Shown here one piece after another: positions 6,246 through 57,276 of a stretch of DNA of 64,000 nt. How positions within the stretch are numbered: the stretch's first letter is position 1; each line of letters begins with the position of its first letter. The notes under the pieces are model-generated. The model worked only from the letters and a program-made list of their open reading frames with translations, ran no database searches and was not told the origin of the DNA. The stretch is from the NCBI GenBank assembly GCA_965222765.1, contig CBDCVG010000043.1, positions 97,053 to 161,052 on the forward strand, in the 5' to 3' direction. The position numbers and the translations under genes were made by a program. This stretch comes from Caldora sp. Its GTDB lineage: Bacteria; Cyanobacteriota; Cyanobacteriia; Cyanobacteriales; Coleofasciculaceae.

Positions 6246-6286
6246 AGAATGAAGAATGAAGAATTAAGAATTAAGAATTAAGAATT
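6234..6286. repeat. STRR heptanucleotide tandem array (AATGAAG x4 then AATTAAG x3)
   Basis: Read directly from the sequence. Confidence 0.85.
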
Positions 6287-6470: not shown

Positions 6471-6480
6471 AAAAATTACC

Positions 6481-6797: not shown

Positions 6798-6817
6798 CTA
6801 TCACCTTGATGTCCGCC

Positions 6818-8545: not shown

Positions 8546-8743
8546 ATAAGAACCAGGTTAGTGACGTTCTCCCCCGCTAACCCTTGCGGGTATAACGGGG
8601 GCTTCTAAAATAGAGACAGTTGAACCCCCGACTCTATTTGTAGCTTCGCGCTTCCCAGGCTGTCATCGACTAAGCCTCCACGCGCAGGGAAGATGAGTCC
8701 CACCTCGCTTAATGCTCGGTCTAAAATATTCCGAGCTGCGTTT

Positions 8744-9903
8744 TCATCTCTGTTCCAGGGTGATGCCACATTTGTGACATTCATGCAACCTAACAGACAA
8801 AGTTTTCGGTACTTTCACTCCACAGTTTGAGCAATTTTGTGATGTACCATGAGGGTTCACTGCAACCACTCGGACACCGCGTTTGACCGCCACTGCCTCC
8901 AAGATGGTGATGAATTTACCCCAAGCTGCATCCAAAATTGATTTGCTCAATCTTGTACGAGCTAGTCCTTTAATGTTCAAATCTTCCACTGCAATCAAGT
9001 CATATTGTTTGACCAGTTTGTGAGCTGTATTGTAATGGAAGTTTTTCCCTGATTCTGCCAATACGCTGATGAATTCTGGCAATGAAGTTCTTCTGTTTTT
9101 CAGCTCGTTTTGAACCACCTTTTTTACGTGCTAACTTACGTTGCTGACGAGCTAGATGAGACTGAGTTTTACGATAGGTTTGCTGAATTGGAACTGTCTC
9201 ACCATGTGAGGTTGTCAGAAATTCTTTGAGTCCGACATCAACACCAACAGCAGTCTGAACTTGATCTAATGGCATAGGTTCGGTAACTGTTTCATCCTGC
9301 ATAGAAATGCAACAGTACCAGCCATCAGCTTTGTGGACTATGGTGCAAGTATTGAGAGTAAAACCATCCGGAATAGGACGATGCATGATTACAGGCATCT
9401 GTCCTATCTTTGATAGTTTCAGTATCCCATTATTGATGTGCGCACCAGAATCGTTTACAGTTAACTCTAGGGTAAACAAATGAGCGAAGTGTACCTGCTT
9501 TTTTGAACCGTGGGCGTCCACCGCGTTTGCCAGACTTATCCGGAATTAGCCAGCGCTCCCAAGCTTTGTTTAATCTTTGCAGATTTACTTGTTGAGATTC
9601 TGACCAGATGTTTTTGTAGTCTGGAAAAAGTTTCTTTGTTTCTTTAAGAGCCGACTGTTGAGTGTAGTAGTTAACTTTTTCTGATATTTCCCCAATCGGC
9701 TCAGAAATCAGACTACAACGGTCAATCCGACAACGAGTTCTTCTTAGCCAATCTAACCTCTGACCGAGTGCGTAATTCCAATGCCTCCGAAGTAGCTCCA
9801 ATGTGTAGAACATGGATAGTTCTTGTTCGGCGCTGGGTTTAATTCGGTAGCAGTAGGTTAGAATCATAGTGATAATTTTACAGCTTATCGCCTGATATGA
9901 CAA
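8744..9903 (-). pseudogene. tnpB: tnpB (IS605 OrfB / TnpB RNA-guided nuclease family), disrupted by two frameshifts
   Basis: Three overlapping ORFs (9430-9903, 9000-9521, 8744-9118) together give the OrfB N-terminus, RuvC region and C-terminal CxxC...CxxC zinc finger (NCSNCGVKV...HECHKCG). Confidence 0.8.
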
Positions 9904-10307
9904 CAGCTTATGACAAGGGATTTAGGTCTGTATACTTGCTTACCGCTCACATCGTATTTGTCACCAAGTACCGCAAGAAGGTGATCAACAAAGACATCTA
10001 TCAACGACTTGCTAGTATCTTTGATGAAGCTTGCTCAAAATGGGAATCTTCCTTGCTAGAGTTTAATGGAGAAAAAGACCATGTACACTTAATAATTCGT
10101 TATCATCCGCAAATCCAACTAAGCAAGTTTATCGCTAACCTAAAAACGGTTTCTAGTCGTCTAATTCGCAAAGAGTTCGAGGATTATCTAAGCCGCGTTT
10201 ACCACAAACCTGTATTCTGGACTGGCTCTTATTTTGTTGCCAGTTGTGGGGGTGTAACGCTTGAACAACTCAAAAAGTATGTTGAGCAACAAACAACTCC
10301 AGATTAA
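9897..10307 (+). CDS. tnpA: IS200/IS605-family Y1 (HUH) transposase TnpA
   Basis: HVHLII HUH motif and SYFVASCGG catalytic-Tyr region; 136 aa. Confidence 0.85.
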   Translation: MTTAYDKGFRSVYLLTAHIVFVTKYRKKVINKDIYQRLASIFDEACSKWESSLLEFNGEKDHVHLIIRYHPQIQLSKFIANLKTVSSRLIRKEFEDYLSRVYHKPVFWTGSYFVASCGGVTLEQLKKYVEQQTTPD

Positions 10308-10462
10308 GGATGTGCTATGCACGTTTTTCTTCGTCGGCATTCCCCGCCCGTTAAGCCTATACGGCTATAACGGGTGACCCCTGCCGACATTAAGTTGGAA
10401 AAATTTTACCTCTTTTATTCAGGCAACATAATAGTATACATGTATTGTAATAGGGTACTAAG

Positions 10463-10482
10463 TAGGGCTTGCTGAATAAGTC
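10463..10482. repeat. Solo terminal repeat of MITE family 1 (TAGGGCTTGCTGAATAAGTC)
   Basis: Exact match to the element ends at 25637 and 29355. Confidence 0.5.
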
Positions 10483-10718
10483 CATTGATTCGGTTTTTTA
10501 AGTAATAAACGTGTCTCCTGTCTGAGCCTGATATGCTAGTCCAGAATCAAAACACTCTCGGGAGAATCCCATTGGTATGCGAAAGTTTTTGTGGAGAGTA
10601 TCGCTGGGTTTAGTCACGATTAGTATCCCAAAATTGGCAGTTCAGATCGATCTCGATTAGTAGGTTATTATCGTTAAATTAGTGTCTTCCTAATCTCTAA
10701 ATTCACCCAAAAAACTGG

Positions 10719-12663: not shown

Positions 12664-12941
12664 ACTAACCTTTACGTTGTTATTGCTTGTGGGAGTGGTT
12701 ACGCCACCATACCCTTGACATTGATGAAAGTTGGTTAAGATTCATCTTCATCAGTTTACTCTGAATTGAAGATTCGCACTTGGGCAGCCAACAATCAGCC
12801 ATTTCAGGTTTTGCGGAATTAGACATAGTTTTCGTCTCCCTGCTCCGTACTCCCACAGAATAATTATCATTTTTTAGGGATTGGGGAAGAGAAATGAAGT
12901 ATTAAGAATTAGGGAGTGGAAAAATATCTCTACAAAGAAAA

Positions 12942-14488: not shown

Positions 14489-17400
14489 TTGGAGATGCCT
14501 ATAATGAAACAAATCAAGCTAGAACAGCATCAATCAGCTAGCGATCGCACCGGACTATACTACTTATATTGGAATAAACTAACCCTCTGTTATTTGTTTG
14601 GAGATTACCAGCAAGCAGTTGAAAATGCTCAGGAAGCTCAACAGTATATAGATGGAGTTGCTGGTTCGCTCCTTATTCCCTTCTTCCATTTCTATGACTC
14701 TCTTTCCTTGTTAGCACTGTATTCTCAAACTTCTGAACCAGAGCAAGAAGAAATTTTACTAAATTCGGATCAATATCTCCTTTGTTCACAGAAACAGCAG
14801 GGAGCAGGGAGCAGGGAGCAGGGAGTAGAGAGAGAGAAAAACTCCAAAAATCATCAAAGGAGTTTTTGTCAGAGATCTAGTATTTTTGACAGGATAGCCG
14901 CTAATCAGCAAAAAATGCAGCAATGGGCAGACTATGCACCACTGAATTTTTTGCATAAATTTGAGTTAGTGGAAGCAGAGCGGTATCGAATCAGGGGTAA
15001 AAAGATGGAGGCAATGGAGTATTATGACCGTGCCATTGCTGGTGCTGCTACTAACGAATATATCCAAGAAGAAGCCTTAGCTAACGAACTGGCAGCTAAA
15101 TTTTATCTAGCATGGGGTAAGCCCAAGATTGCCCAAGTCTATTTGACAGATGCCTACTACGGCTACGCTTGCTGGGGAGCTAAAGCGAAAGTTGAGCAAT
15201 TAGAAAAACACTATTCCCAATTCCTCGCTCCCATTATGACTAGGGAAAGAGGTAGTCTGACAGATGATACTGTCTCCAACTTAAGCACTGAAGCCATCAC
15301 TTCTAGCAGTAGCAATGATTCAGCTATTCTGGATTTGGCAGCAGTGATGAAAGCTTCCCAACTGCTCTCTGGCGAAATTCACCTGGCTCCCTTGCTCTCC
15401 ACTTTGCTGGAAGTAATGATGGAAAATGCCGGAGCTCAGAAAGGTTCTCTGCTGTTACTTGAAGCGGATAATTTAATTATTGCAGCCCAATGTATCACTG
15501 GTCAACAGTGTAACCTCCAACCAATTCCCTTGGAATCCAGTGGTGAGATTTCCCACGCCGCGATTAATTATGTTTGGCTTACTCAACAAATTTTCGTAAG
15601 TAATGAGGCAACAGCAGAAACGAGCTTAGTTGCCGATCCTTACATTATCAATGTGCAGCCTAAATCTCTGTTGTGTCTACCCATTATCCAACAAGGCAAA
15701 CTAGTTGGTATTCTTTACCTGGAAAATAACCTGACGGCAGGAGCATTTACCAACGATCGTATCGAAATTTTACAACTCCTGTGTACTCAAGCTGCTATTA
15801 CCTTGGACAATGCCCAGCTTTACCAACAGCTAGAAGAATATTCTCACACCTTAGAGAAGAAAGTCCAAGAGCGTACTCAGCAATTGCAAGAGGAAATTCA
15901 AGAACGACAGCAAGTAGAAGAAACCCTCAAGCAACTGAATCAAAAGCTAAAAACCAAATTTGAAGAACTTGGACAAATGAATTTGGCTCTAGCAAACGCC
16001 ATGCCAGGAATTGCTAAACTCAGCACTGAAGGTCATTATCTAGAAGTCAATAACTCCTATGCTCAAATAGTTGGCTACCAACCAGAGGAAATGCTGGGAA
16101 TCAACTGGGAGATAACCGTTCATCCTGAGGATATACCAATTGCAATCGCTGCCTACAAAAAGATGCTAATTGAGGGTAAAGGGGAGTTTGAAGCTAGGGG
16201 AGTTCGCCGGGATAGTTCTATTTTCTACAAACAAGTGTTAATGGTGAAAGCTGATGTGAATCTTGCTGGTTTTGAGGGTCACTACTGCTTTTTCAAGGAT
16301 ATAAGCGAACGGAAACAGGCGGAGGAGGCACTAAGAGAGAGCGAAGAACGCTATCGCTCCCTTTATGAACATACCCCAGTTATGTTGCATTCTATCGACT
16401 CCATGGGCAAATTAATCAGTGTCAGTAACTATTGGCTGAAAAAGCTAGGTTATGAGCGCTCCGAAGTTCTTGGGAGAAAATCTACAGAATTTTTGACAGA
16501 AGAGTCTCGCCGTTATGCTAAAGAAGTGATGATGCCTAAATTTTTTCGGGCAGGAAGTTGTTTAGAAATTCCTTATCAGTTTGTCTGCAAAAATGGCAAA
16601 ATTATTGATGTACTCCTTTCTGCTATTACTGAACAGGATAAATCTGGCAAGATAGTTCGTTCCCTAGCAGTTTTAGTCGATGTAACCAAACGTAAGCAAG
16701 CCGAGAAAGCACTGCAACAGGCCAAAGAAGCTGCTGAAGTTGCTAACCAAGCCAAAAGCCAATTTTTAGCTAACATGAGTCACGAATTGCGTACTCCCCT
16801 CAACGGCATTCTCGGCTATACTCAAATTCTGCAACGTTCCCAGGAACTCAACTCCCAGCAACAAAAAGGTATTGATACCATCCACGCCTGCGGCAGTCAT
16901 TTGCTGACTCTGATTAACGATATTTTAGACATCTCCAAAATCGAAGCCGGGAAAATGGAACTCTCTCCCGAAAATTTCCACTTTCCTAACTTTTTGCGCA
17001 GTGTTGTCGAAATCTGCCACATCCGTGCTCAACAACAAGAAATTACTTTTACCTACCAATTCTCTAATCAACTACCTACCGCTGTCTATACAGATGAAAA
17101 ACGACTCAGGCAAGTTTTGATTAATTTGTTGAGTAATGCGATCAAATTTACCAATACTGGTAGCGTTAATTTTAACGTAAGTGTCATTAGTCATTGGTCA
17201 ACAGCCAACAACCAACAACCAACAACAAATAACCAACAACAAATAACCAACAACAAAATTCGGTTTGAGATTGAAGACACTGGTATTGGTATCGCAGTAG
17301 AAGAGCTAGAAAAAATCTTTGAACCCTTTGAACAAGTAGGACACAGCAGCCACAAAGCAGAAGGAACTGGACTAGGATTAGCCATTACCCAGAAAATTGT

Positions 17401-18205
17401 CTCTCAGATGGGAGGGCAACTCCAAGTCGAAAGTACCTTAGGAGTTGGTAGTACCTTTTGGTTCGATATAGAATTACCCCAATCCTCAAAATTAATTGAA
17501 CTACCGATTGTCAATTACTCCAACAAGATAATTGGCTACCAGGGTGACAAGAAAAAAATTCTGGTGGTAGATGATTGCTGGGAAAATCGTGCAGTTCTTG
17601 TTAATTTTCTCGAACCTATCGGCTTTGAAATGAGGGAGGTAACAAACGGAATAGAAGGTTTAGAGCAAGCCAAAGAATTTCAACCAGATTTAATGATCAT
17701 TGACCTAGTGATGCCAGTGATGGATGGTTTTGAGCTAACCCGATCTCTGCGCCAGTTACCAGAATTTAAAGAGACAATTTTGATTGCTTCTTCGGCGAGT
17801 GTTTCTGAGTTTTATCAGCAACAAAGTCAGGAAATAGCTTGTAATTATTTCCTACCTAAGCCTATACAAACAGGAGATTTACTGACCCAAATCAGAAATT
17901 TCTTAAAATTAATCTGGGTATATGATGATACTGAGAAATTATTCAGCCAGCAGCAATCTAATGGCTATAATTCAGTCAGAGAAATTCAAGTAACAAACAT
18001 TATACCTCCTGCTGTTGAGGAACTAAATATCTTGTATGACTTAGCCAGAAAAGGTTGGATCGACAACCTCATTGAGCAGGGGGAGAAATTGAAAAATTTG
18101 GATAATAAATATGTGCCCTTTGCTCAACAACTTCAGGAATTAGCTAAAGAATTTAAAATCAAGAAAATTAGAGAATTTCTGGAACAATATATCAGGAGTA
18201 GTTAG
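14489..18205 (+). CDS. Hybrid sensor histidine kinase (TPR-like region, GAF, PAS/PAC x2, HisKA, HATPase_c, REC, conserved C-terminal extension), N-terminally truncated relative to the ancestral STK-AAA form
   Basis: H-box SHELRTPLNGILGY. The C-terminal REC has D in IIDLVMP. The N-terminal 250 aa match the post-AAA TPR region of giant kinases. In-frame STRRs lie inside the ORF. Confidence 0.85.
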   Translation: MEMPIMKQIKLEQHQSASDRTGLYYLYWNKLTLCYLFGDYQQAVENAQEAQQYIDGVAGSLLIPFFHFYDSLSLLALYSQTSEPEQEEILLNSDQYLLCSQKQQGAGSREQGVEREKNSKNHQRSFCQRSSIFDRIAANQQKMQQWADYAPLNFLHKFELVEAERYRIRGKKMEAMEYYDRAIAGAATNEYIQEEALANELAAKFYLAWGKPKIAQVYLTDAYYGYACWGAKAKVEQLEKHYSQFLAPIMTRERGSLTDDTVSNLSTEAITSSSSNDSAILDLAAVMKASQLLSGEIHLAPLLSTLLEVMMENAGAQKGSLLLLEADNLIIAAQCITGQQCNLQPIPLESSGEISHAAINYVWLTQQIFVSNEATAETSLVADPYIINVQPKSLLCLPIIQQGKLVGILYLENNLTAGAFTNDRIEILQLLCTQAAITLDNAQLYQQLEEYSHTLEKKVQERTQQLQEEIQERQQVEETLKQLNQKLKTKFEELGQMNLALANAMPGIAKLSTEGHYLEVNNSYAQIVGYQPEEMLGINWEITVHPEDIPIAIAAYKKMLIEGKGEFEARGVRRDSSIFYKQVLMVKADVNLAGFEGHYCFFKDISERKQAEEALRESEERYRSLYEHTPVMLHSIDSMGKLISVSNYWLKKLGYERSEVLGRKSTEFLTEESRRYAKEVMMPKFFRAGSCLEIPYQFVCKNGKIIDVLLSAITEQDKSGKIVRSLAVLVDVTKRKQAEKALQQAKEAAEVANQAKSQFLANMSHELRTPLNGILGYTQILQRSQELNSQQQKGIDTIHACGSHLLTLINDILDISKIEAGKMELSPENFHFPNFLRSVVEICHIRAQQQEITFTYQFSNQLPTAVYTDEKRLRQVLINLLSNAIKFTNTGSVNFNVSVISHWSTANNQQPTTNNQQQITNNKIRFEIEDTGIGIAVEELEKIFEPFEQVGHSSHKAEGTGLGLAITQKIVSQMGGQLQVESTLGVGSTFWFDIELPQSSKLIELPIVNYSNKIIGYQGDKKKILVVDDCWENRAVLVNFLEPIGFEMREVTNGIEGLEQAKEFQPDLMIIDLVMPVMDGFELTRSLRQLPEFKETILIASSASVSEFYQQQSQEIACNYFLPKPIQTGDLLTQIRNFLKLIWVYDDTEKLFSQQQSNGYNSVREIQVTNIIPPAVEELNILYDLARKGWIDNLIEQGEKLKNLDNKYVPFAQQLQELAKEFKIKKIREFLEQYIRSS

Positions 18206-18873: not shown

Positions 18874-21800
18874 ATGAGAGGTGACTGTATATCTAGCCTA
18901 ATAACTCAAACTTTTACTGCTATCGGTACTAGTAGTTCAGCTGTTCTGGACTTGACAAAGGTAATCAAAGCTTCCCAAGCTTTCTTTGAGGAAATTTACC
19001 TGGCTCCTTTGCTCTCCACTGTGCTCCAAGTAATGATGGAAAATGCCGGAGCAGACAAAGGGGCTCTGCTGTTACTCGAAGCTGATAACCTGGTTATTGC
19101 TGCTCAATGTATTAGTGGTCAACAGTGCAACCTTCAACCAATCCCCATTGAGTCTAGCTCTAAGCTTCCCATCACTGCCATTAACTATGTCTGGCACACT
19201 CAACAAACTTTGGTAAGTAACGAGGTAAAAGCAGAAACTTTCTTGGCAGCTGATTCTTACATCATCGGTACACAACCCCAATCTTTGTTGTGCTTACCTA
19301 TAATTCACCAAAGCAAACTCATTGGCATCCTTTACCTGGAAAATCAGCTGACAGCGGGTATTTTTACCAGCAATCGCCTCGAAATTCTCAAACTCCTCTG
19401 TGCTCAAACTGCCATTGCTCTGGAAAATGCTCGACTTTACCAACAGCTAGAAGCATATTCTGAAACCCTCGAACAGAAAGTTCAAAAGCGCACTCACGAA
19501 TTACAGCAAGAAATTAGAGGGCGCCAGGAAGTAGATTCAGCACTCCGTCTCTCAGAGGAAAAGTTTGCTAAAGCCTTTCTTTGTAGTCCTAATGCCATTA
19601 CAATTACTTCCCTGAGTGATGGCAAACACCTTGAGGTCAACGATAGTTTCTGTAGTTTTACTGGTTACTCTGCTGAAGAAATCCTTGGTTATACAGCAAT
19701 GGAGCTGAATCTGTGGGTCAATGCAGAAGACCGTGATCGCTTATTCAATGCTATACAAGATACAAAGGTTATTCGCAACTATGAATTCGATTTCCGCACT
19801 AAATCAGGAGCTGTGAGAACAGCGCTCTTATCAGCAGAAATTATCACTCTTCACGGACAAAAATGCCTACTTTCCCTTTCCAATGATATCACTGAGCGCC
19901 AGCAAGCATCCAAATCACTGGCTCAATTGAATCTAGCTCTGGCAAATGCTATGCCAGGAATTGCTAAACTCAGTACCGAAGGTCGTTATGTGGAAGTCAA
20001 TGACTCCTATGCCAAAATTGCAGGTTACGAACCCGAAGAAATGATTGGGGTGCAATGGCAAGAAAGCATTTATCCTGAAGATCTACCCATTGCGATCGCT
20101 GCCTATGAAAGGATGTTAGTAGAAGGCAAAGCTGAATTTGAAGCCAGAGGAGTTCGCCAAGATGGCTCTATTTTCTACAAACAAGTCCTAATGGTAAAAG
20201 CTGATCTTAACCGTGCAGGCTTTGAAGGTCACTACTGCTTTTACAAAGATATCAGCGATGCCTATCAGCGAGCGGAACAACGCAGACAAACAGAAGCTGC
20301 TCTAGAGCACCAAAATCAACAACTCCAGCAAGAAATCTCAGAGCGTCAACGCATAGAGGCAATGCTTGATGGACAAAATCGTATCCTCGAACTAATTGCC
20401 AAAGGAAAGCCTCTCTCAGAGATCTTAGATAGCCTAGCACAGTTTATTGAATGGCTTTCAGGTGAGGCTTTATGTTCTTTTCTGCTACTGGAGAGCAATA
20501 CAGGAAAACTTCGACATGGTGCTGCTCCTAGTCTACCAGATAGCTATAACCAAGCAGTTGATGGTATAGCTATTGGTCCTAAGGTGGGGTCTTGTGGTAC
20601 AGCGGCTTACTCCAAGAAAACGGTGATTGTCTCAGATATTGCGACTAATTACCTGTGGGAAGATTTTAAAGATTTAGCATTACAGTACAATCTTCGTGCC
20701 TGTTGGTCTACACCAGTTATTGCTAGGGAAGAAGTGCTGGGTACTTTCGCCATGTATTACGGCGAATCAAAAACCCCTAGTCCTGAAACTCAAAAGTTGA
20801 TTGACAAAGCGACTTATTTAGCAAGAATAGCAATCGAACACGACAGAACTACGCAAGCTTTGCAACAGGCAAAAGAAGCTGCTGATGCTGCCAACCGAGC
20901 CAAAAGCCAATTTTTAACCAATATGAGCCACGAACTACGCACTCCCCTCAACGGCATTCTCGGCTATACTCAACTTTTCCAACGTTCTGCTGAACTCACA
21001 CCCCAGCAACAAAAAGGCATCAACACCATTCACACTTGCGGCACTCACCTGCTTACCTTAATTAACGATATTTTAGACCTCTCCAAAATCGAAGTAGAGA
21101 AAATGGAACTCTACCCCCACGACTTTCATTTGCCTAACTTCTTATGGGGAGTGACACAAATGTGTCAGATTCGCGCTCAACAAAAAGGAATTACTTTTGC
21201 CTACCAACCCAGTAATCAACTACCGACTGCTGTTCATGCTGATGAAAAACGGCTGCGGCAAGTGTTGATTAACCTGCTGGGTAATGCCATTAAATTTACC
21301 GATAGTGGTGGTGTAACTTTTAAGGTAAGTGTTATTAGTCAAGAGCAAAGGACAAATGACGTAGGACAAATGACTAATCAAATCAGGTTTGAGGTAGAAG
21401 ATACTGGTATTGGTATAGCCACAGAGGAACTAGAAAAAATCTTTGAGCCTTTTGAGCAAGTGGGAGACAATCAGCATAAATCAGAAGGCACCGGACTGGG
21501 ATTAGCCATCACCAAGAAAATTATCTCTCTGATGGGAAGCCAACTCCAAGTCGAAACTACCTTGGGAGATGGTAGCACCTTTTGGTTCGAGCTAGAATTA
21601 CCCCAAGCCTCAGAATCGATGCAGTTAAGAACTCAGAGTTCTTTGAGGGAAATAATTGGCTATCAAGGGGATAGGAAGAAAATTCTTGTGGTAGATGACT
21701 ACGATGAAAATCGTTTGGTTTTCGTCAAGTTGCTCGAACCCCTTGGCTTTGAAATTAGAGAAGCATCTAACGCAGAAGAAGCTGTAGAGCAAGGGATTAA

Positions 21801-22332
21801 GTTTCGACCAAATTTGATGATCATTGATTTGGTGATGCCAGGGATAGATGGTTTTGAATTGACTCAATATCTACGCCAGTTAGCTGAGTTTGAACGGACG
21901 ATTTTGATCGCTTCTTCCGCCAGTGTCTCTGAGTTTTATCAAGTTCAGAGTAAAGAAGTTGGTTGCAATGATTTTCTCGCTAAACCAATACAAGCGGAAG
22001 ATTTGCTCCTTAAAATTCGAGATAACTTAGAGTTGACATGGGTGTACAAAGATGATAATAAAATGCCAAATCAACCGACTTTAGCTCTAACTAATTCCTC
22101 CCAAGGCATTCAATCAACTACAATAATTACTCCCTCTATTGAAGAACTAAATACCTTATATGATTTGGCTAAAAAAGGGCTAATTGATAGCTTGATAGAG
22201 CAAGCAGAGAAATTGAAAGACTTAGATCTTAAATATTTGAGTTTTGCTCAAAAAATTCAACAATTAGCTCAAAATTTTGAAATTAAAGCAATTAGAAATT
22301 TACTTCAAGAATATATAAATAGGGCTTGCTGA
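18874..22332 (+). CDS. Hybrid sensor histidine kinase, paralog of 14489-18205 (GAF, PAS x2, GAF, HisKA, HATPase_c, REC, C-terminal extension)
   Basis: Collinear with HK1 from its residue ~258 onward. H-box SHELRTPLNGILGY. Stop codon supplied by a MITE terminal repeat. Confidence 0.85.
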   Translation: MRGDCISSLITQTFTAIGTSSSAVLDLTKVIKASQAFFEEIYLAPLLSTVLQVMMENAGADKGALLLLEADNLVIAAQCISGQQCNLQPIPIESSSKLPITAINYVWHTQQTLVSNEVKAETFLAADSYIIGTQPQSLLCLPIIHQSKLIGILYLENQLTAGIFTSNRLEILKLLCAQTAIALENARLYQQLEAYSETLEQKVQKRTHELQQEIRGRQEVDSALRLSEEKFAKAFLCSPNAITITSLSDGKHLEVNDSFCSFTGYSAEEILGYTAMELNLWVNAEDRDRLFNAIQDTKVIRNYEFDFRTKSGAVRTALLSAEIITLHGQKCLLSLSNDITERQQASKSLAQLNLALANAMPGIAKLSTEGRYVEVNDSYAKIAGYEPEEMIGVQWQESIYPEDLPIAIAAYERMLVEGKAEFEARGVRQDGSIFYKQVLMVKADLNRAGFEGHYCFYKDISDAYQRAEQRRQTEAALEHQNQQLQQEISERQRIEAMLDGQNRILELIAKGKPLSEILDSLAQFIEWLSGEALCSFLLLESNTGKLRHGAAPSLPDSYNQAVDGIAIGPKVGSCGTAAYSKKTVIVSDIATNYLWEDFKDLALQYNLRACWSTPVIAREEVLGTFAMYYGESKTPSPETQKLIDKATYLARIAIEHDRTTQALQQAKEAADAANRAKSQFLTNMSHELRTPLNGILGYTQLFQRSAELTPQQQKGINTIHTCGTHLLTLINDILDLSKIEVEKMELYPHDFHLPNFLWGVTQMCQIRAQQKGITFAYQPSNQLPTAVHADEKRLRQVLINLLGNAIKFTDSGGVTFKVSVISQEQRTNDVGQMTNQIRFEVEDTGIGIATEELEKIFEPFEQVGDNQHKSEGTGLGLAITKKIISLMGSQLQVETTLGDGSTFWFELELPQASESMQLRTQSSLREIIGYQGDRKKILVVDDYDENRLVFVKLLEPLGFEIREASNAEEAVEQGIKFRPNLMIIDLVMPGIDGFELTQYLRQLAEFERTILIASSASVSEFYQVQSKEVGCNDFLAKPIQAEDLLLKIRDNLELTWVYKDDNKMPNQPTLALTNSSQGIQSTTIITPSIEELNTLYDLAKKGLIDSLIEQAEKLKDLDLKYLSFAQKIQQLAQNFEIKAIRNLLQEYINRAC

Positions 22333-22365
22333 ATAAGTTTTTTGTGAGAAGAGGCAATGGTGAGC

Positions 22366-24333: not shown

Positions 24334-24485
24334 TTTAATTCTCCCCCATGGAGTTGTCAAACGACTACGAATGTTCCCCTGCGGCTACCTACTTCCTTAC
24401 TCAAGCAGATAGATGAAGCTGTTCAAAAAAGGGTGATAAAGATGCCGCACTTAGCGGATACTTGGAACAGATGAGCGATCGCGAT

Positions 24486-24652
24486 CACCGAAAGCGGCAC
24501 CGAAGCCCATTCCTTTAGGGATGGGAGGGATAGCTGCCCGCCGCTTGGTTGGCAAGTTATTTGTTAGAAAGTTTTTTGTACAAACAACCAACAACTAACA
24601 ACTTACTAACACTTGTATCCCCCGTGCTGTCTTCCGGGGGATGAGGGGTGAA
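24486..24652. repeat. Dispersed repeat family 3 copy (caccgaaagcggcaccgaagcccattcc ... hairpin ... GGGGATGAG)
   Basis: Near-identical copies at 52719-52885 and 53396-53570. Confidence 0.55.
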
Positions 24653-24847
24653 CGAAATATGAAGTGGGATTTATAGCAAAGTATCCTCTCAAATCATTAG
24701 TTCTCCTTTGTTTCCGTATCTCCCCATCTCCCTATCTCCCCACCCTTTTTTTCGCTCACCCGGGGATGAGTTAACTGGAGAATCCTCAAAGATTGCTCCT
24801 CTGAAATATGATGAAAATAGTACCAAATCAAAAGAGCTGTATTCGGT

Positions 24848-25560: not shown

Positions 25561-25636
25561 AGAGAATTACAACAAAGGCACACCAGGGTAAAAAGAAAGG
25601 TTCCGATCGCTTACTCAGATCAACCCAACACATAAC

Positions 25637-25857
25637 TAGGGCTTGCTGAATAAGTCGTAATTTTCGGGTTTGAATAGGTGGTAGGTGGTAGGTGGCAGGT
25701 GGTAGGTAAGGTATTAGGTATTAGGTGTTAGGGAATTTTCCACGAAAGTGCAAGGTTTTTGAGCCCATAGATGCAAAAACCTTGCACTTGTTTGGCTTAC
25801 CATAGGATTGAAAGCCTCGTCACCGCATGGCTTCCACACTTATGCAGCAAACCCTAA
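25637..25857. mobile_element. MITE family 1 copy (plus orientation)
   Basis: TAGGGCTTGCTGAATAAGTC at the left end and GCAGCAAACCCTAA at the right end. Internal TAGGTGG heptamer array and hairpin gtgcaaggtttttgagcccatagatgcaaaaaccttgcac. Confidence 0.65.
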
Positions 25858-26642: not shown

Positions 26643-26762
26643 TACCCTGAGGGCTGAAATTAGTCAAATCCAACTGCGATCGCTCAGGAAAGGAGAAGAA
26701 ATTAACTCATCCCCCGGAAGACAGCCCTTGGTTGACTATCGGGATGGGTGAAGATATGACAT

Positions 26763-28285: not shown

Positions 28286-29353
28286 ATGTCTACAAACCTC
28301 ACTTCCCAGTCTCCCAACCCCGTATATCCCATTATCTGGCAAGAAGACAAAGTTGTACTGATTGACCAAACTCAACTGCCAGAAAAGTACACCACTGTAG
28401 AAATTAATGACTATCAGGAGATGGCGCAAGCAATCAAAACTATGATTGTCCGAGGTGCCCCTGCCATTGGTATTGCAGCAGCTTATGGGATGTACCTGGG
28501 AGCAAGGGAAATTCAGACAACAGACAGAGATACCTTCCTTAACCAACTCGAAGAAATTGCTCAGCAGTTGCGCCAGACTCGTCCCACAGCAGTTAATTTA
28601 TTTTGGGCGATCGCACGGATGTTGAAAACTGCTCAGGAGACACAGGGTTCATTGGAGCAGCTTCAGGCATCTTTGTTGGCAACAGCTCAAGCAATTCAAA
28701 CTGAAGATTTACACACTTGTCAAGCAATTGGCGATCGCGGTTTAGAAATTTTACCATCTCAACCTCAGCAATTAACTCTGTTAACTCACTGTAATGCTGG
28801 AGCACTAGCAACAGCTGGTTATGGTACTGCCTTAGGTGTAGTGCGCTCAGCATGGCGGGAGGGAAGACTAAATCGAGTCTATGCAGATGAAACCCGTCCC
28901 CGCTTGCAAGGAGCCAAGCTTACTTCCTGGGAATGTGTGCAAGAAGGCATACCAGTTACGGTAATTACCGATAACATGGCAGCTCATTGTATGAAACAGG
29001 GGTTAATTGATGCAGTAGTTGTAGGAGCGGATCGGATTACTGCGAATGGGGACGTTGCTAACAAAATAGGCACTTATAGTTTAGCGATCGCAGCTGTTGC
29101 TCACAATATTCCTTTCTTTGTTGCTGCGCCTTTATCTACTATTGATTTTAAGCTAGCTACCGGCAGTGAAATCCCAATAGAAGAGCGCCACCCCTCGGAA
29201 ATCTATCAAGTAGGGGAAACGGTCTTGTGTCCACCAAGAGTAGAGTTTTATAATCCCGCCTTTGATGTTACACCTGCGAAGTTAATCACAGCAATTATTA
29301 CTGAGCAGGGTGCGGTTGCGCCTGAGAAGTTGGGACGACTTAGGGCTTGCTAA
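28286..29353 (+). CDS. mtnA: S-methyl-5-thioribose-1-phosphate isomerase (eIF-2B alpha/beta/delta family)
   Basis: 355 aa with the characteristic MtnA length and motifs ([32 protein letters not shown]). Last codons and stop come from a MITE end. Confidence 0.85.
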
Positions 29354-29354
29354 A

Positions 29355-29573
29355 TAGGGCTTGCTGAATAAGTCGTAACTTTCGGGTTTGAATAGGTGTT
29401 AGGTGTTAGGTGGTAGGTGGTAGGTGAGGTTGGAGGTAGTAGGTGTTAGGGATTTTCGACTTACGGTGCAAGGAAATTGAGCCAAAAGATACAAAAACCT
29501 TGCACTTGGCAAAGTATAAAATGTTTGAAAGCTTTGCCTGGCATAGTTTCCACACTTTTGCAGCAAGCCCTAA
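29355..29573. mobile_element. MITE family 1 copy (plus orientation), preceded by a partial tandem terminal repeat at 29341-29354
   Basis: Reverse complement is near-identical to 6517-6735. Confidence 0.65.
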
Positions 29574-49707: not shown

Positions 49708-50847
49708 ATGAGCCAAATTCTGATTATTGATGACGACCCAGCTATTCAGATGTTACTGAAACGGACACTTGCTAAACGGGGTTACGATATTTCAGTTGCC
49801 AGTAACGGTGAAGACGGTCTAGCATTGGCACAAGAGCTAAGTCCGGGACTAATTCTGTGCGATTGGAATATGCCACGCATGAATGGACTAGAGGTCTGTT
49901 GCAAAGTCAAGGCAACACCAGAGCTCTCTACTACCATATTCGTGCTGCTGACTGCTCGCACTTCGATTGAGGATCGTGTCCAAGGATTGGATGCTGGTGC
50001 TGATGACTTTTTGTCAAAGCCCATCGAAATGCCTGAATTGCAGGCGCGGGTAAGGGCTGGGTTGAGGTTACATCAACTTAGTCGCGATTTGCAGAACCAA
50101 AAGCAGCTGCTGGAGACAGAATTAGCAGAAGCTGCTGATTATGTGAGTTCTATTCTTCCCGACCGGATTACCGAACCACCAGTAACGATCGACTCCCGAT
50201 TTATACCTTCCTTTCAGTTAGGAGGTGACGGTTTTGATTATTACTGGCTAGATTCAGAGCATTTGGCAATTTATTTACTAGATGCGGCTGGACATGGCTT
50301 AAAAGCTGCCTTACCGACTATTTCAGTTTTGAACCTATTGAGGTCCCGAGCACTTCCTCACATAAATTACTACAAACCCAGCGATGTCCTGCGAGGGTTA
50401 AATGACACTTTCCAGATGACTCAGCGCAATGATAAGTACTTCACCATCTGGTACGGAGTATATAACCGGTTTAATCGCCAACTAACTTACTCTAGTGCAG
50501 GACATCCACCAGCTATCTTGCTCTGTAAGAGTCCTGATTCATCAATTCAGGTAGAACGCCTGAAAACTCAAGGTTTGCCCATTGGTATGTTTCCTGAGGC
50601 TGCCTATATTGAGCAAAGCTGCGAGGTGGTAGGGTCTAGTACACTGTACCTCTTTAGCGATGGGATTTACGAAATTAACCAAAGTGATGGTAACATCTGG
50701 GGATTAGATCCCTTTGTCAAGCTGCTTGCCGACTGTAGGAACAATGGAGCCCATAACCTAGACCAGGTCTTGAATTCTATTGCCTCTATCAATCCCCAAG
50801 ATGATTTTGATGATGATTTATCTCTGTTAGAAATCAACTTTGGTTAA
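49708..50847 (+). CDS. Response-regulator receiver fused to a PP2C/SpoIIE phosphatase (RsbU-like)
   Basis: REC (ILIIDDD...LILCDWNMP...K) followed by a PP2C domain (GGDGFDY...DAAGHG...FSDG). Confidence 0.85.
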   Translation: MSQILIIDDDPAIQMLLKRTLAKRGYDISVASNGEDGLALAQELSPGLILCDWNMPRMNGLEVCCKVKATPELSTTIFVLLTARTSIEDRVQGLDAGADDFLSKPIEMPELQARVRAGLRLHQLSRDLQNQKQLLETELAEAADYVSSILPDRITEPPVTIDSRFIPSFQLGGDGFDYYWLDSEHLAIYLLDAAGHGLKAALPTISVLNLLRSRALPHINYYKPSDVLRGLNDTFQMTQRNDKYFTIWYGVYNRFNRQLTYSSAGHPPAILLCKSPDSSIQVERLKTQGLPIGMFPEAAYIEQSCEVVGSSTLYLFSDGIYEINQSDGNIWGLDPFVKLLADCRNNGAHNLDQVLNSIASINPQDDFDDDLSLLEINFG

Positions 50848-50875
50848 TATTGCGCCTCCGCAAGAATAATCTTGC

Positions 50876-51202
50876 TTAGTGAGTCGAAGCAACAGCATTT
50901 TCAAACTCTTCTCGGGTCTCAAAGATTTCAAAGACGCGATCCATGCTGGTTAGTTCAAATAACATTCTTATTTGGTCATTGACAGAACAAATAAAAAGCT
51001 TACCACCAGCTGCACGAACTGTTTTCAGGGCCAGGACAAGAGCTCCTAAGCCGGAACTATCCATAAAGGTAACGTCGGCAAAATCAATCAACACAATATC
51101 TACATTAGATTCCACCAATTTAGTAATCTCTTGGCGAAATTGACCAGCTTTGGTGCCATCTAAGATACCAGAGGGTCGAACAACTTTAACAACAGCACTC
51201 AT
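50876..51202 (-). CDS. Anti-sigma-factor antagonist (STAS domain, RsbV/SpoIIAA-like)
   Basis: 108 aa, FMDSSGLGALV STAS motif with a phosphorylatable Ser. Confidence 0.85.
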   Translation of the reverse strand: MSAVVKVVRPSGILDGTKAGQFRQEITKLVESNVDIVLIDFADVTFMDSSGLGALVLALKTVRAAGGKLFICSVNDQIRMLFELTSMDRVFEIFETREEFENAVASTH

Positions 51203-51344
51203 ATTTCTCTCGAGACTTTCTATTTACAAAAATATCCAGACCTTGCCAGTATAGCCGCGACTATTAGTTTCAGCCACACTGTACCTACTAGTAATATTCA
51301 TTAATTTCCTTGGGTAGTCATTGACATCCTCCCTCCGCTAACCT

Positions 51345-52637
51345 CTAACGAGGTATAGCGGGTGATTCCCAAGAGTTCTTGGTTCGCAGTTCATCGAGCC
51401 GACTTAGAACCAGAGCGTTTCCGTTCTTGAGCCAGAGGTCAGTTTCTCCCTGCGCTTTCGAGCTTTTGGCTCCGGATTCTGTATGCCCTACAGTACCGTT
51501 TAAATATTCAGCTAATAACAATAATCCTTTTTTCAAGATGTTTTTGGCTGCATTATGGTCGCGGTCTAATACCGTTTTACAATTACTGCATTTATGTGTT
51601 CTGGTGCTAAGTGTTTTCTTCACCTTCGCCTTACAATATGAGCAATCAACAGTTGTATTGTGAGGCACTACAGCAATAACTATCACACCATACACTTTGG
51701 CAAAGTATTGAAGCCATTTGGTGAATCGATACCAAGATGCATCGCTGATGGATTTAGCTAGCTGGTGATTTTTTACCATGTTTTGTATCTTCAAGTCCTC
51801 GTAGACAATTAAATCTTTCGACTTAACTAGCGCCAAAGCATCTTTACGAGCTTTGTCTTCACGCTGTCTACTTACCTTCAGATGTTGCTTCGCTAAAGCC
51901 TTGCGTGCCTTGTGGTATCTGTTAGACTGTTTCTTCTTTTCAACATGTTTCTTAGAAACCCGACGTTGAAGCATCTTTAATCTTCGTTCGGATTTCCTCA
52001 AATATCGAGGGTTGTCAACAGTATTTCCATCGGAATCGGTATAGAACTCTTTTAGTCCTAAATCAATTCCCGTCATTTTCCCTTGAAATTCATGCTTCTC
52101 TCGTCTATCCCAATCCACTAAGAACTGAGCATAGTAGCCGTCAGCACGTCTTATGACTCGAACTCTTCGGATTTGTTTTTCCCTGGTCCAAACTAAATCC
52201 CTAGAACTCCACAAATCCATCATTCCGACTTGAAAACCATCAGTGAAAGTTATAGTCCTTCTCTCAGCAGACAATTTCCAGCCTGAATTTTTGTACTCGA
52301 GGGAACGACTGAATTTTTTGTAGCGAGGATAGCCTTTTTTACCGGTTTTTCCTAATCTACAGTTTTCATAAAAACGCTGAATGGCAGACCATGCCCTATC
52401 AGCGTGAGCCTGCCTTGCTTGGGAGTTAAGTTTTTTCGCCCAAGGGGCAAGTTTGTCCTTAGCTAGTAGGGCGCAAAGCTTTTGGAGGTCGTTACGAGTG
52501 ACCCGTCTGTTATCTTCCCAATAGCGCAAACAGGTGTTGCGGATGAACTGCCCTGTTCGGATTGCTTCATCCAACTTGCTGTACTGAACTTTGGTTCCTT
52601 TGAGCTTGGCTTCAATTACTAGCATGAGACCAAGCAT
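51345..52637 (-). CDS. tnpB: TnpB (IS605 OrfB family RNA-guided endonuclease), intact
   Basis: RuvC-I TGIDLGLKEF, RuvC-II YEDLKIQNM, zinc finger CSYCKAKV...CSNCKTV, RuvC-III DRDHNAAKNI; 430 aa. Confidence 0.9.
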   Translation of the reverse strand: MLGLMLVIEAKLKGTKVQYSKLDEAIRTGQFIRNTCLRYWEDNRRVTRNDLQKLCALLAKDKLAPWAKKLNSQARQAHADRAWSAIQRFYENCRLGKTGKKGYPRYKKFSRSLEYKNSGWKLSAERRTITFTDGFQVGMMDLWSSRDLVWTREKQIRRVRVIRRADGYYAQFLVDWDRREKHEFQGKMTGIDLGLKEFYTDSDGNTVDNPRYLRKSERRLKMLQRRVSKKHVEKKKQSNRYHKARKALAKQHLKVSRQREDKARKDALALVKSKDLIVYEDLKIQNMVKNHQLAKSISDASWYRFTKWLQYFAKVYGVIVIAVVPHNTTVDCSYCKAKVKKTLSTRTHKCSNCKTVLDRDHNAAKNILKKGLLLLAEYLNGTVGHTESGAKSSKAQGETDLWLKNGNALVLSRLDELRTKNSWESPAIPR

Positions 52638-52718
52638 AACATATTTTACCGACTGCGAATACAGGTAGAATTATTTAGATTCGCTGCCGCTCAATTGTTA
52701 GCTGGTCGGCATTCATCT

Positions 52719-52885
52719 CACCGAAAGCGGCGGGAAGCCCATTCCTTCTAAGGATGGGAGGGATAGCAGCCCGCCGCTTGGTTGGCAAGTTATTTGTTAG
52801 AAAGTTTTTCTTGACAAACAACTAACAACCAACAACAAATAACGCTTGCATCCCACGTACTTTAGTCGTGGGATGAGCTTAACGC
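52719..52885. repeat. Dispersed repeat family 3 copy
   Basis: Aligns with 24486-24652 and 53396-53570. Confidence 0.55.
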
Positions 52886-53395
52886 TAAACCATTGGCGGT
52901 ACTCGGCTACGCCTCGATCAATCCGCCTCGGTTATAGCGGGAGCCTTCTGCCGACATTAAGGTAATTTTTTGGAGATGCCCTACTAGGCAACCTATAAAT
53001 TTATTTAGATTCTTGGCAATTAGGGTGCTCTAAAGAGGTCAACAGCTTCATTGCTTAACTCCTGGAGTCCCCTAAAGAACCTTCGGATTTTACCGACGTA
53101 AACATATCATACCAAGTTGCTTTCCTCTGAAGAAACACTCCTTCGGAGTGAGGGTATGGGGTGTAGGGTATCGATTGTGGAACTGGCATCTTGCCAGTTG
53201 CTCTGAAGAAACAAGGCAGGAGGCAGTCCCGATGAAAAATTTTTTTCACCACCAGGTGATGAAAGTAGGGGCGAATGGCCATTCGCCCCTACTGCTCTCG
53301 ACTCCCTACTTTCAAGTCAGGAGGGAAGAGGGTTTGGCTTGTTTCTTCCTTTCATAGCAGGTGGTACACCGCCTGTCAGGCGCTTTCTAAAAACA

Positions 53396-53570
53396 TCACC
53401 GAAAGCGGCACCGAAGCCCATTCCTTAAGGGATTGGAGGGATAGCCGCCTGCCGCTTGGTTGTTAGTTGTTTGTTAGTTGTTTGTTAGAAAGTTTTTTGA
53501 CAAACAACCAACAACTAATAACTTGCTAACACGAAATCCCCCATGCTTTAGCCGGGGGATGAGTTAAATG
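53396..53570. repeat. Dispersed repeat family 3 copy
   Basis: Aligns with 24486-24652 and 52719-52885. Ends with hairpin atcccccatgctttagccgggggat then GAGTTAA. Confidence 0.55.
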
Positions 53571-53726
53571 ATGCTCCCAGAATTTTGTTGAGATATGTTA
53601 CAAAATTTCCTCGATTTTCCTGCGCCAACTGCATAAGTGGATTTTTGCACCGCTATTTACTCTATGTAGGGGTCAAAGCTGAGCCCCTAACCAAGTTCAA
53701 CAATTTCGACTTTCAGGAGAATCGAG

Positions 53727-54374
53727 ATGAATCAGAATTTACCCACCATTATCAACGGTACTGCTGGAGATGACACCGTGGAAGGAACTATCGGGATTGA
53801 CTTACTCCTCGGTTTCGGTGGTAATGATCTACTCCAAGGGAATGAGGGACACGATTTTCTATTTGGACATGCTGGTAATGATATCCTCTACGGAGGTGAG
53901 GGACATGATTATCTGTTAGGAGGTACTGGAAATGATCTCCTTTACGGAGATGAAGGCAGTGATATCCTCCTTGGCGGTGAAGGGAATGATCGTCTTTATG
54001 GGGGAATTGGCAGTGATTTACTTCTTGGTAATGATGGTAATGATGTTCTTGTTGGTGGAACTGGTGCGGATACTTTTGGCTTCCTCTCCCCCAACCAAGG
54101 AATTGATACCATCGTTGACTTTAATTTAGCCCAAGGAGACCTAATACAAATTTCTGCTAGTGGCTTTGGTGGTGGACTCACCGGAGGTACGCTGGATGCT
54201 GACCAGTTGACCATCGGTTCAGCTGCTACCAATGGAAGCGATCGCTTTATCTATAACGATGCCACAGGTGCTTTATTCTTTGACCCTGATGGCACAGGAG
54301 CTCTGGGACAAATCCAGTTTGCCCAACTTTCTACAGGGTTGGCTCTCACCAACAGTGACATTTTCGTTGTCTAG
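53727..54374 (+). CDS. RTX calcium-binding repeat protein (hemolysin-type nonapeptide repeats)
   Basis: Tandem GGxGNDxLx / GGEGxDxLx nonapeptides across about 120 aa. Confidence 0.8.
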   Translation: MNQNLPTIINGTAGDDTVEGTIGIDLLLGFGGNDLLQGNEGHDFLFGHAGNDILYGGEGHDYLLGGTGNDLLYGDEGSDILLGGEGNDRLYGGIGSDLLLGNDGNDVLVGGTGADTFGFLSPNQGIDTIVDFNLAQGDLIQISASGFGGGLTGGTLDADQLTIGSAATNGSDRFIYNDATGALFFDPDGTGALGQIQFAQLSTGLALTNSDIFVV

Positions 54375-56189: not shown

Positions 56190-56450
56190 AAGCTAGTACC
56201 GCTGTGCGGAATTAAGAATTAAGAATTAAGAATTAAGAATGCTTATAGAGTAAGGATTATATCGCTCTCAAGCTGGTCACAAAAAGCGATGGGGAAGCCA
56301 ACTCATTAAAGGGGTTGGAGGAAATGTCGCCCCACCGCTTTGTCATTTGTCAAGTGTCATGGGTCATTAGTAAAAAGGACAAAGGACTAATGACGCGAAA
56401 TCCCACGTAATGCAAGTCGTGGGATGAGATTAATTATTTCCGCCGTCCTA
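56190..56450. repeat. Composite repeat: STRR (GAATTAA x4, 56209-56240) plus a diverged family-3-like element; a shorter reverse-complement copy lies at 32150-32250
   Basis: 56190-56280 is the reverse complement of 32161-32250. The interior ends with atcccacgtaatgcaagtcgtgggatgagattaatt. Confidence 0.5.
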
Positions 56451-56933: not shown

Positions 56934-57276
56934 ATAGGGCTTGCTGCATCAGTGTGAAAACTATACCAGACAGGGCTTCAAAAGGAGCCAGTCAAGGGTG
57001 AGCGAAAAAACGTGTGGGGAAAAGAGTAAGCAGACACGGAGACGCGGAGATGCGGAGATATTGAAATCCCACGCAAAATTTCGTTCACCCGCCAGTCAAG
57101 AAACCCGGTTTCTGAGGGATACTGATATTTCTTTGTTGTCCTCACAAGAAACCGAGTTTTTGATACCTCTCTTCTGTCACTCTGGGATATTTCCACGAAT
57201 TTACGGCATTACAGCCAAGGTAAAATCAACGTTTCAACCCGGTTTGACAGAAGAGAGGTAATACTTAAACGGCGCT

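Follow-up and report, generated by a model that had tools for sequence, protein, structure and literature searches.

How did a short structured repeat come to lie between tnpB and the left end of a transposon, the place that tnpA takes in IS605-type elements? The question is raised by a stretch of 64,000 nucleotides from Caldora sp. (Cyanobacteriota, Coleofasciculaceae; GenBank assembly GCA_965222765.1, contig CBDCVG010000043.1, positions 97,053 to 161,052 of the forward strand), which we call the window and to which all positions refer unless a locus is named. It contains IS2, a TnpB-only element of the IS200/IS605 family, a second element (IS1) and several copies of a repeat, family-3, one of which (copy B) lies upstream of the IS2 tnpB (Table 1). 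The original prediction, made from the letters of the window, described IS2 as an intact element in which the repeat had replaced tnpA. In our reading, which we consider highly probable, two mobile elements are nested at this locus: an IS608-type TnpB-only element and, within its left end, a non-autonomous, non-coding derivative of IS200/IS605 elements that resembles the palindrome-associated transposable elements (PATEs) of Haloquadratum walsbyi (defined in PMC3119063).

The repeat upstream of tnpB compared with an empty site

Protein searches recovered six loci with relatives of the window TnpB (L006, L183, L185, L186, L188 and L194), and the ends of IS2 were set against them. TnpB identity to the window was 87% in L006, over the 77 N-terminal residues that the locus contains, and 74-85% in the other five. 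L006, from a contig of Symploca sp. SIO2C1, shares the left end of approximately 160 bp, nearly identical in sequence, but has neither the repeat nor tnpA. Pairwise alignment of the window and L006 gave a single clean gap of 161 columns with no target duplication (...CATCTCAC|CGTTAAACC... in the empty site of L006 vs. ...CATCTCAC, 161 bp and CGCTAAACC... in the window). Read over a longer distance, the junction is ...GGCATTCATCTCAC|CGTTAAACCATTGG... in L006, while in the window GGCATTCATCTCAC is followed by the insertion (CGAAAGCGG...GATGAGCTTAA) and then by CGCTAAACCATTGG. L183 is also TnpB-only; its left end is again the same, though broken by other small insertions, and tnpA is absent.

These comparisons indicate that no tnpA was replaced and that the repeat is a later insertion into the left end of IS2, since L006 and L183 both have a TnpB-only organisation, and the short left end is present in L006 with no repeat inside it. 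The interval 52640-52900, taken previously for a tnpA slot, is the left end of IS2 itself plus a secondary insertion of 161 bp. The position of the repeat, between the tnpB start and the left terminus, is indeed that of tnpA in IS605-type elements such as IS1. However, relatives with 84-87% identical TnpB lack tnpA, and the window and L006 differ by one clean insertion, which contradicts replacement; that IS2 once carried a tnpA later exchanged for a family-3 copy is barely credible.

On the top strand, copy B separates GGTTTAGCG from GTGAG, within the 3' arm of the left-end hairpin of IS2. As it splits this arm, the left end of IS2 is probably disabled and no longer serves as a substrate for transposition, while tnpB and the right end were left intact. 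The element as a whole can therefore hardly be called intact, although tnpB itself looks so. Short palindromic insertions also break the IS2-type left end in L183 (1700-2000 of that locus), one of them at the same hairpin foot as copy B.

Table 1. Positions of IS2, family-3, IS1 and MITE2 features in the window
Feature	Position	Strand	Basis
IS2, TnpB-only IS200/IS605-family element (IS1341-like), 1641 bp including a 161-bp foreign insertion	51321-52961	-	comparison with relatives
Target and left cleavage tetranucleotide TTAC, predicted transposon-associated motif (TAM) of TnpB	52962-52965	-	directly before the left end of the window copy, L006 and L183
Distal IS2 left end: CTTAATGTCGGCAG, AAGG, 5' arm of the hairpin and loop region	52883-52961	-	near-identical to L006 and L183
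Proximal IS2 left end, between the hairpin foot and the start codon of tnpB	52638-52721	-	near-identical to L006; cut off from the distal part by the insertion only
tnpB open reading frame (ORF), 430 aa, apparently intact	51345-52637	-	Pfam, PDB match, motifs
Predicted omega-RNA scaffold, overlapping the tnpB 3' end	51321-51499 (upper limit approximate)	-	RNAalifold on six relatives
IS2 right end: GAAT guide, imperfect hairpin CACCCGCTATACCTC/GAGGTTAGCGGAGGG, linker, terminal TCAA	51321-51370	-	six relatives
Flank that would supply the omega-RNA guide, TGACTACCCAAGGAAATTAA	51301-51320	-	inferred from the right-end boundary and from how TnpB and omega-RNA are known to be arranged
Family-3 copy A, target TCAC 24485-24488, right hairpin region interrupted by MITE2	24489-24774	+	
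Family-3 copy B, PATE-like, 3' of TCAC (52718-52721) within the IS2 left-end hairpin	52722-52882	+ (antisense to tnpB)	161-bp gap against L006
Family-3 copy C, target TCAC 53396-53399	53400-53567	+	
Family-3 copy D, diverged subfamily, compensatory changes in both left-end stems, target TCAC 56277-56280	56281-56433	+	
Solo remnant of a family-3 right end, GGCTGTCTTCCGGGGGATGAGTTAA	26702-26731	-	
MITE2, 116 bp, terminal inverted repeats, 9-bp duplication GGGGATGAG (24637-24645, 24762-24770)	24646-24761		
IS1, IS605-type, intact tnpA and frameshifted tnpB, left flank CCAA, right end finishing in TCAC	8561-10394	-	ends by alignment to IS2
IS1 tnpA	9897-10307	+	Pfam Y1_Tnp 1-121/121, full-length

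Boundaries of IS2

On the element top strand (the minus strand of the window), three independent copies with unrelated flanks (window, L006 and L183) become homologous directly after TTAC. At the right end, homology stops after ...GGAGGATGTCAA; all six relatives finish in TGTCAA (GGAG(G/T)ATGTCAA in all six 3' ends) and then diverge into unrelated flanks. IS2 has no terminal inverted repeats. It has subterminal hairpins at both ends, both on the top strand: CCGCTA(T)AACC.../...GGTTTAGCGG on the left and CCGCTATACCTC/GAGGTTAGCGG on the right. The right-end hairpin covaries in the relatives, its pairing being kept through compensatory changes. With no tnpA inside these limits, the organisation is TnpB-only, as in IS1341, and IS2 is an ordinary IS608-like TnpB-only element of the IS200/IS605 family. 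The proposed match between its left end and that of the first insertion sequence of the window, near 10380, was borne out by a shared 15-mer, CTGCCGACATTAAGG, at 52948 and, with one mismatch, at 10381.

TnpB and the predicted omega-RNA of IS2

The IS2 tnpB looks intact because the encoded protein matches Pfam OrfB_IS605 (E=4.6e-20) and Cas12f1-like_TNB (E=2.6e-18), aligns with the ISDra2 TnpB structures 8BF8/8EXA over residues 30-387 (E=3.6e-33), and has its catalytic and metal-binding motifs in place, as the original prediction had noticed: the RuvC D-E-D (GIDLG at 190, YEDLK at 279, DRDHNAA at 358) and the zinc-finger motifs CSYC/CSNC. There are 25 members in the 90%-identity cluster of this protein; the 15 members listed lie on at least 10 different contigs of 9-480 kb, and with the members spread in this way the IS2-type TnpB family is probably multi-copy in a close relative.

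RNAalifold on the six relatives predicted a structure of 46 pairs at the 3' end of tnpB and the right end of IS2 (Table 1), 20 of the 46 with compensatory changes. Pairing was found in 97% of cells, compared to 29-39% when the partners were slid by 1-3 columns, and the observed covariation score was reached by none of 500 shuffles. As the region folded as a single sequence is unremarkable (z = -1.7), the support comes from covariation. The conserved structure matches what is expected of a TnpB omega-RNA scaffold, and we predict that it is one; the guide would be the flank TGACTACCCAAGG..., read from 51320 downward. An omega-RNA had been expected at 51205-51365. Of this interval, 51321-51365 stood, as part of the right-end hairpin and the conserved structure, while 51205-51320 proved to be flank, namely the spacer in front of a gene for a STAS-domain protein, and the structure runs into the ORF to about 51499.

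Target site of family-3

Two further loci, L003 and L037, have a family-3 copy inside a terminus (...CGCTCACCC) of another repeat, the miniature inverted-repeat transposable element MITE2. The terminus is split as CGCTCAC, family-3, CC, and this fixes the junction after TCAC. The three independent junctions (the empty site of L006, L003 and L037) have a sole common solution, insertion right 3' of TCAC, at which family-3 runs CGAAAG...TTAA and no duplication is formed.

TCAC was directly upstream in 47/48 complete copies, and the first downstream base was a pyrimidine in 41/48. The genome scan behind most of these copies required TCAC, which biases the sample; we therefore also used copies that had not been selected for their flank. 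Among the matches listed there were 15 of these (four in the window, four in cyanobacterial metagenomes and seven non-cyanobacterial relatives), and they showed 12 TCAC and three TTAC. The metagenome scan, in which TCAC was not required, gave at least 120 matches, mostly due to chance, with approximately 11 relevant among those listed. A conserved insertion site, which the original prediction had proposed to look for, was thus found in the form of TCAC, sometimes TTAC (together TYAC), without duplication.

Relationship of the family-3 ends to tnpB elements

The left module of family-3 also occurs outside cyanobacteria, where the metagenome scan found the motif TCAC, 2-4 nt, AAAGCG.., GAAG, hairpin, AGGRAT. 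It lies directly upstream of a Pfam-confirmed tnpB in L113 and L159 and upstream of a tnpB-like ORF in L129, and forms the left half of mini-elements of approximately 215 bp with a left and a right end in L125 and L176. The left-end hairpin covaries across 18 sequences, with double changes in 5/7 pairs. In the left ends of IS1 and IS2, a closing stem (GTCGGCA/TGCCGAC) surrounds guide and hairpin in the same layout as in family-3.

In IS608, bases 1, 2 and 4 of the cleavage site pair with bases 2, 1 and 4 of the guide respectively, while base 3 is unpaired; the cleavage tetranucleotides are TTAC (left) and TCAA (right), the right guide is GAAT, and the left hairpin is cut 19 nt on its 5' side, the right hairpin 10 nt on its 3' side (PMC3201880). 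For TCAC this rule predicts the guide GAAG, and GAAG is invariant directly 5' of the family-3 left hairpin. The sole variation in the family-3 flank, C/T at position 2, faces a guide G and gives G-C or G-T. At the right end of family-3, the guide AAAT goes with the cleavage site TTAA (14/37 copies). The fit at other ends was read by hand from the sequences, with the guide 5' of the hairpin foot: AAGG with TTAC (three paired positions) at the left and GAAT with TCAA at the right end of IS2, GGGT with CCAA at the left and GAAG with TCAC at the right end of IS1, GAAG with TCAC at the left and GAAT with TCAA at the right end of L113, and, at the right ends of L159 and L125, CAAG with TGAC and GAAG with TCCC respectively. 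Cut and hairpin foot were separated by 16-17 nt on the left and by 9-10 nt on the right, compared to 19 and 10 nt in IS608.

Family-3 is PATE-like because it is short and non-coding, has near-terminal palindromes, a TYAC target, no target duplication and ends related to those of IS605 elements; on sequence, every feature by which a PATE is recognised is present. The suggestion that these small repeats derive from IS200/IS605 elements and are PATE-like was thus upheld by the target motif, the absence of duplication and the left end shared with tnpB elements. Family-3 would move as single-stranded DNA, most likely cut and rejoined by a TnpA of the Y1 (HUH) type acting in trans. The guide GAAG would pair with TCAC or TTAC and choose the target, giving insertion exactly 3' of it, in one orientation and with no duplication. 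Copy B landed on a TCAC in the foot of the IS2 left-end hairpin.

Several points weigh against this reading. The two hairpins of family-3 differ (left CCCATTCC/GGGATGGG vs. right CCCCCG/CGGGGG) and have only the CCC/GGG foot in common, unlike the two hairpins of IS608, which are near-identical; L113, a full element, likewise has partly different left and right hairpins. The other 23/37 right guides of family-3 (GCAT in 19, CAAT in three and CACT in one) fit TTAA in part. Outside family-3, the hairpin feet used to assign guides were placed by hand and not by a program, and the ends of IS1 rest on a comparison of two sequences. The unbiased sample for the target site comes to 15 copies. Covariation cannot separate DNA hairpins from RNA hairpins. 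The empty site of IS2 was not recovered, as exact look-ups of the window TnpB (with two start codons), its STAS neighbour, P0121 and P0247 found no record of these proteins, and the lack of a target duplication at IS2 was read from its flanks only. Finally, no autonomous parent of family-3 and no cognate TnpA was found in approximately 0.5 Mb of Symploca DNA.

Structure and distribution of family-3

Family-3 elements have three parts: a conserved left module of approximately 60 nt, with the closing stem enclosing GAAG, the hairpin and AGGRAT; a variable AT-rich hairpin of short tandem repeats, sometimes with extra nested modules; and a right end composed of (AAAT), a GC hairpin, 5-6 nt and TTAA, so that the copies end in a GC hairpin and (AT)GAG(N)TTAA. 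Every copy in the window closes in GAG(N)TTAA after the GC hairpin, a variant of the hairpin and GAGTTAA that had been noted earlier. Hairpins were predicted near both termini, and family-3 folds strongly (z = -5.4, -3.6 and -7.7). Direct reading revealed no terminal inverted repeats, the 5' end CGAAAGCGGCGG not being complementary to the 3' end ...GGGGGATGAGTTAA. Length was 102-286 bp, with a mode of 157-161 (45 copies measured), too short for a transposase, and the window copies contain no ORF.

An nhmmer census of the window gave exactly four left modules, four right modules and the remnant at 26702-26731, in agreement with the earlier report of the repeat at about 24486, at 53396 and, diverged, within 56190-56450; the four copies are on the plus strand. 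All four are intergenic, three of them between plus strand genes. A scan of 51150-53100, where copy B is the sole family-3 copy, showed no consensus promoter or terminator at that copy, and GC skew was uninformative. The remnant is an isolated 3' half of a right end, preceded by TCAC and by apparent reverse-complemented pieces of the left module, and may be a rearranged or heavily deleted copy. Runs of GAATTAA/GAATGAA heptamers lie at 56209-56240, 6226-6285 and 12885-12916, the first just upstream of copy D, inside the interval reported earlier and outside the element.

Outside the window, a pattern scan of one genome per species, with TCAC required in the pattern, yielded 56 loci: 25 in Symploca sp. 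SIO2E6, 20 in SIO2C1, three in SIO1C2, two in Caldora, single loci in Coleofasciculus, Microcoleus and Potamolinea, cyanobacterial-type copies in two more assemblies, and a locus in a verrucomicrobial metagenome-assembled genome (MAG) that was discarded as a chance match. In total, 59 further copies were found beyond the window (Symploca, Caldora, Coleofasciculus, Microcoleus, Potamolinea and other cyanobacterial assemblies). BLAST of copy C against PLSDB gave no match, and we found no published description of family-3 in cyanobacteria in the literature searched.

The right hairpin has its loop in one or the other orientation (CGTACTTTAGTCG vs. CGACTAAAGTACG and CGTGCTGTCTTCCG vs. CGGAAGACAGCACG; e.g. 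L020, L038, L054 and L029 vs. most copies), with stem and flanks unchanged, as if the tip of the hairpin had been inverted. Nested modules were seen in L013, L030, L032 and L049 of Symploca SIO2E6 and in L011, L021, L027, L048 and L056; they comprise a tandem unit of approximately 32 nt (TTGCCTCGCGTTGCTCACCATGC...) and, ahead of the right hairpin, a GTTAGCGTAGCGGCACGAAGTGCA block. In L047 (~6110-6150), a left module begins a few bases past the apparent 3' end of a tRNA gene (GGTTCGAATCCTACC...) and the usual right end is missing.

IS1 and the search for a mobiliser

A degraded, related IS605 element had been reported upstream of the decarboxylase gene of the window, and this was confirmed: IS1 adjoins the gene for a pyridoxal phosphate (PLP)-dependent decarboxylase, and its tnpB carries at least three frameshifts. 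The foot of the IS1 right hairpin, CCCCCG/CGGGGG, equals that of the right hairpin of family-3. As IS1 has this foot and an intact Y1 tnpA, a TnpA of the IS1 type is a candidate mobiliser of family-3, and nothing more.

Searches for another source were negative. tblastn with TnpA and TnpB against all loci detected unrelated IS605 copies only, and inspection of the ORFs downstream of family-3 copies without a right end gave no parent element. L012 was rejected as a parent, the gene in question being one for an IS607-type serine recombinase inserted into a family-3 copy. On the reverse complement of L012 (~1040-1750), this IS607-type tnpA (200 aa, with a MerR helix-turn-helix and a serine resolvase domain) lies in, or truncates, the copy and has the first codons of a tnpB-like ORF behind it. 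The tnpA of L037 was dismissed as a source, as it is disrupted by MITE2 and its ends are unrelated. The IS605 elements of L023, L057 and L058 are doubtful as source or mobiliser, their boundaries and flanks not fitting the pairing rule. In these elements (L023 6840-6880; L057/L058) tnpA and tnpB are divergent, and the hairpin of the left end, AAACCCCG(Y)G...CCGGGGATGAAAGGG, is closely similar to the right hairpin of family-3, including its loop.

MITE2 and other repeats of the window

MITE2, which also occurs in L009, L016, L037 and other loci, has terminal inverted repeats (GGGTGA(A/G)CGAAA...). A second window copy lies at 56996-57090, with the 9-bp duplication GCCAGTCAA at 56987-56995 and 57091-57099. 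There are three cases of MITE2 in a right hairpin of family-3 (window copy A, L009 and L016); family-3, in turn, is inserted in a MITE2 terminus (L003 and L037) and in the IS2 left hairpin (window). A classical MITE with terminal inverted repeats was rejected as an identity for family-3, which has neither such repeats nor a target-site duplication, whereas MITE2 has both.

Another repeat, with the core TAGGGCTTGCTGAATAAGTC and the hairpin GTGCAAGG...CCTTGCAC, occurs at 6424-6804, 10458-10497, 22315-22354, 25632-25794 and 29350-29512 in the window, one copy being just outside the left end of IS1, and also in L016 and L052. Two features are unrelated to IS2 and family-3: two large adjacent paralogous ORFs (14489-18205 and 18874-22332) that share blocks of 71-83% identical DNA, and a gene with WD40-type repeats (3769-5724) that contains many internal repeats.

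Alternative explanations for family-3

Family-3 could be a hybrid-ended PATE with left and right hairpins from different IS605 lineages, moved by a TnpA of relaxed hairpin specificity or by a dedicated single-copy Y1 enzyme, family-3 and MITE2 mutually targeting hairpin feet. We regard this model as unlikely. If true, it would amount to a system of inactivation of transposon by transposon in filamentous cyanobacteria, parallel to SMR-A/PATE in Haloquadratum, with family-3 entering IS605 left ends and MITE2 entering family-3 right hairpins. A dedicated enzyme also features in the proposal that family-3 is a repetitive extragenic palindrome (REP), or a bacterial interspersed mosaic element (BIME), moved by a domesticated single-copy REP-associated tyrosine transposase (RAYT, or TnpA-REP). 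The high copy number (at least 20-25 strict-pattern copies per Symploca MAG) and the absence of a visible linked transposase agree with it, as does the report of TnpA-REP subclasses 2.4, 2.7 and 2.8 in cyanobacteria (PMC6006769). However, the REPs of these subclasses have a 5' GT[AG]G beside a single palindrome (PMC6006769), whereas family-3 has distinct left and right modules, a TYAC flank (GTRA on the other strand), no GT[AG]G beside its hairpins and, at the left, an end homologous to the one in tnpB elements. None of the loci showed a RAYT gene, the whole genomes not having been searched for one. Taken together, this origin seems quite improbable.

Strong folding, covarying stems in the left module and the location of all four window copies between genes (three of them between plus strand genes) would also be expected if family-3 were mainly a functional structured RNA gene or a cis-regulatory element whose spread is incidental. 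Rfam 15 gave no match at the gathering score in the whole window and matches of chance level only at E<=10 in 50800-53800; a weak match to STnc490 (16.8 bits, where the gathering score is 56) was put down to chance. Inspection of the sequence led us to drop ribozymes (hammerhead, twister and HDV-like) and integron attC sites, for which there was no Rfam support and the core or symmetry did not fit. Presence and absence at a precise junction, nesting of copies in other repeats and in the end of an insertion sequence, a highly variable middle part and the lack of a consensus promoter or terminator at copy B also argue against an RNA or regulatory function, which we consider very unlikely. A rolling-circle miniature of the IS91, ISCR or Helitron kind, with one-ended recognition, a 3' subterminal hairpin, a tetranucleotide target and no duplication, would account for the asymmetric ends, the hairpin 9-10 nt from the 3' end and the insertion beside a tetranucleotide. 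But the structured motif of the left end is the one that precedes tnpB in IS605-type elements, the complementarity of guide and cleavage site follows the IS608 scheme, and no Rep/Y2 gene was seen near any family-3 copy; the probability of such an origin is minimal.

Relation to known systems and significance

The PATE-like reading and the IS608-type nature of IS2 place both elements beside known systems. IS608 of Helicobacter pylori shares with IS2 the TTAC target and left cut, the TCAA right cut, the GAAT right guide, subterminal imperfect hairpins at similar distances from the cuts and the lack of inverted repeats, and it shares with family-3 the pairing of guide and cleavage site (GAAG with TCAC, AAAT with TTAA). 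Unlike IS608, IS2 has no tnpA and has an extra closing stem around the left guide and hairpin, and family-3 has no genes at all and two dissimilar hairpins. TnpB of IS2 aligns with that of ISDra2; in both systems a structured RNA, predicted in the case of IS2, overlaps the 3' end of the gene and stops at the right end, and the guide comes, or in IS2 would come, from the flank. IS2 differs in its predicted TAM (TTAC vs. TTGAT) and the absence of tnpA, and it is known here from sequence alone.

The PATEs of Haloquadratum walsbyi, like family-3, lack inverted terminal repeats and target duplication, are too short for a transposase, have near-terminal palindromes and ends related to IS605-type elements, and are found nested with small mobile elements that strike palindromes (PMC3119063). 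Family-3 differs from these archaeal elements in its cyanobacterial hosts, in its modular middle of short tandem repeats and in the lack of one common repeated palindrome at its left and right ends, and a simple deletion, mediated by repeats, of a single parent's core is therefore not evident. REP/BIME elements with their RAYT resemble family-3: both are intergenic hairpin elements of high copy number, and for both a Y1 HUH enzyme is presumed to act in trans. REPs differ in consisting of a single palindrome beside GT[AG]G, whereas family-3 has separate left and right modules, lies 3' of TYAC and has a left end common to tnpB elements.

The analysis reveals no new mechanism. It gives base-exact boundaries for a TnpB element, together with a predicted TAM (TTAC), omega-RNA scaffold and guide, and it defines, in marine filamentous cyanobacteria (Symploca and relatives), a PATE-like repeat family that had not been described, an element of a well-known kind. 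Repeats of this family fragment assemblies and confuse annotation. Since several unrelated elements can be read correctly by the IS608 code, the left-end sequence could by itself suffice to predict targets and TAMs.

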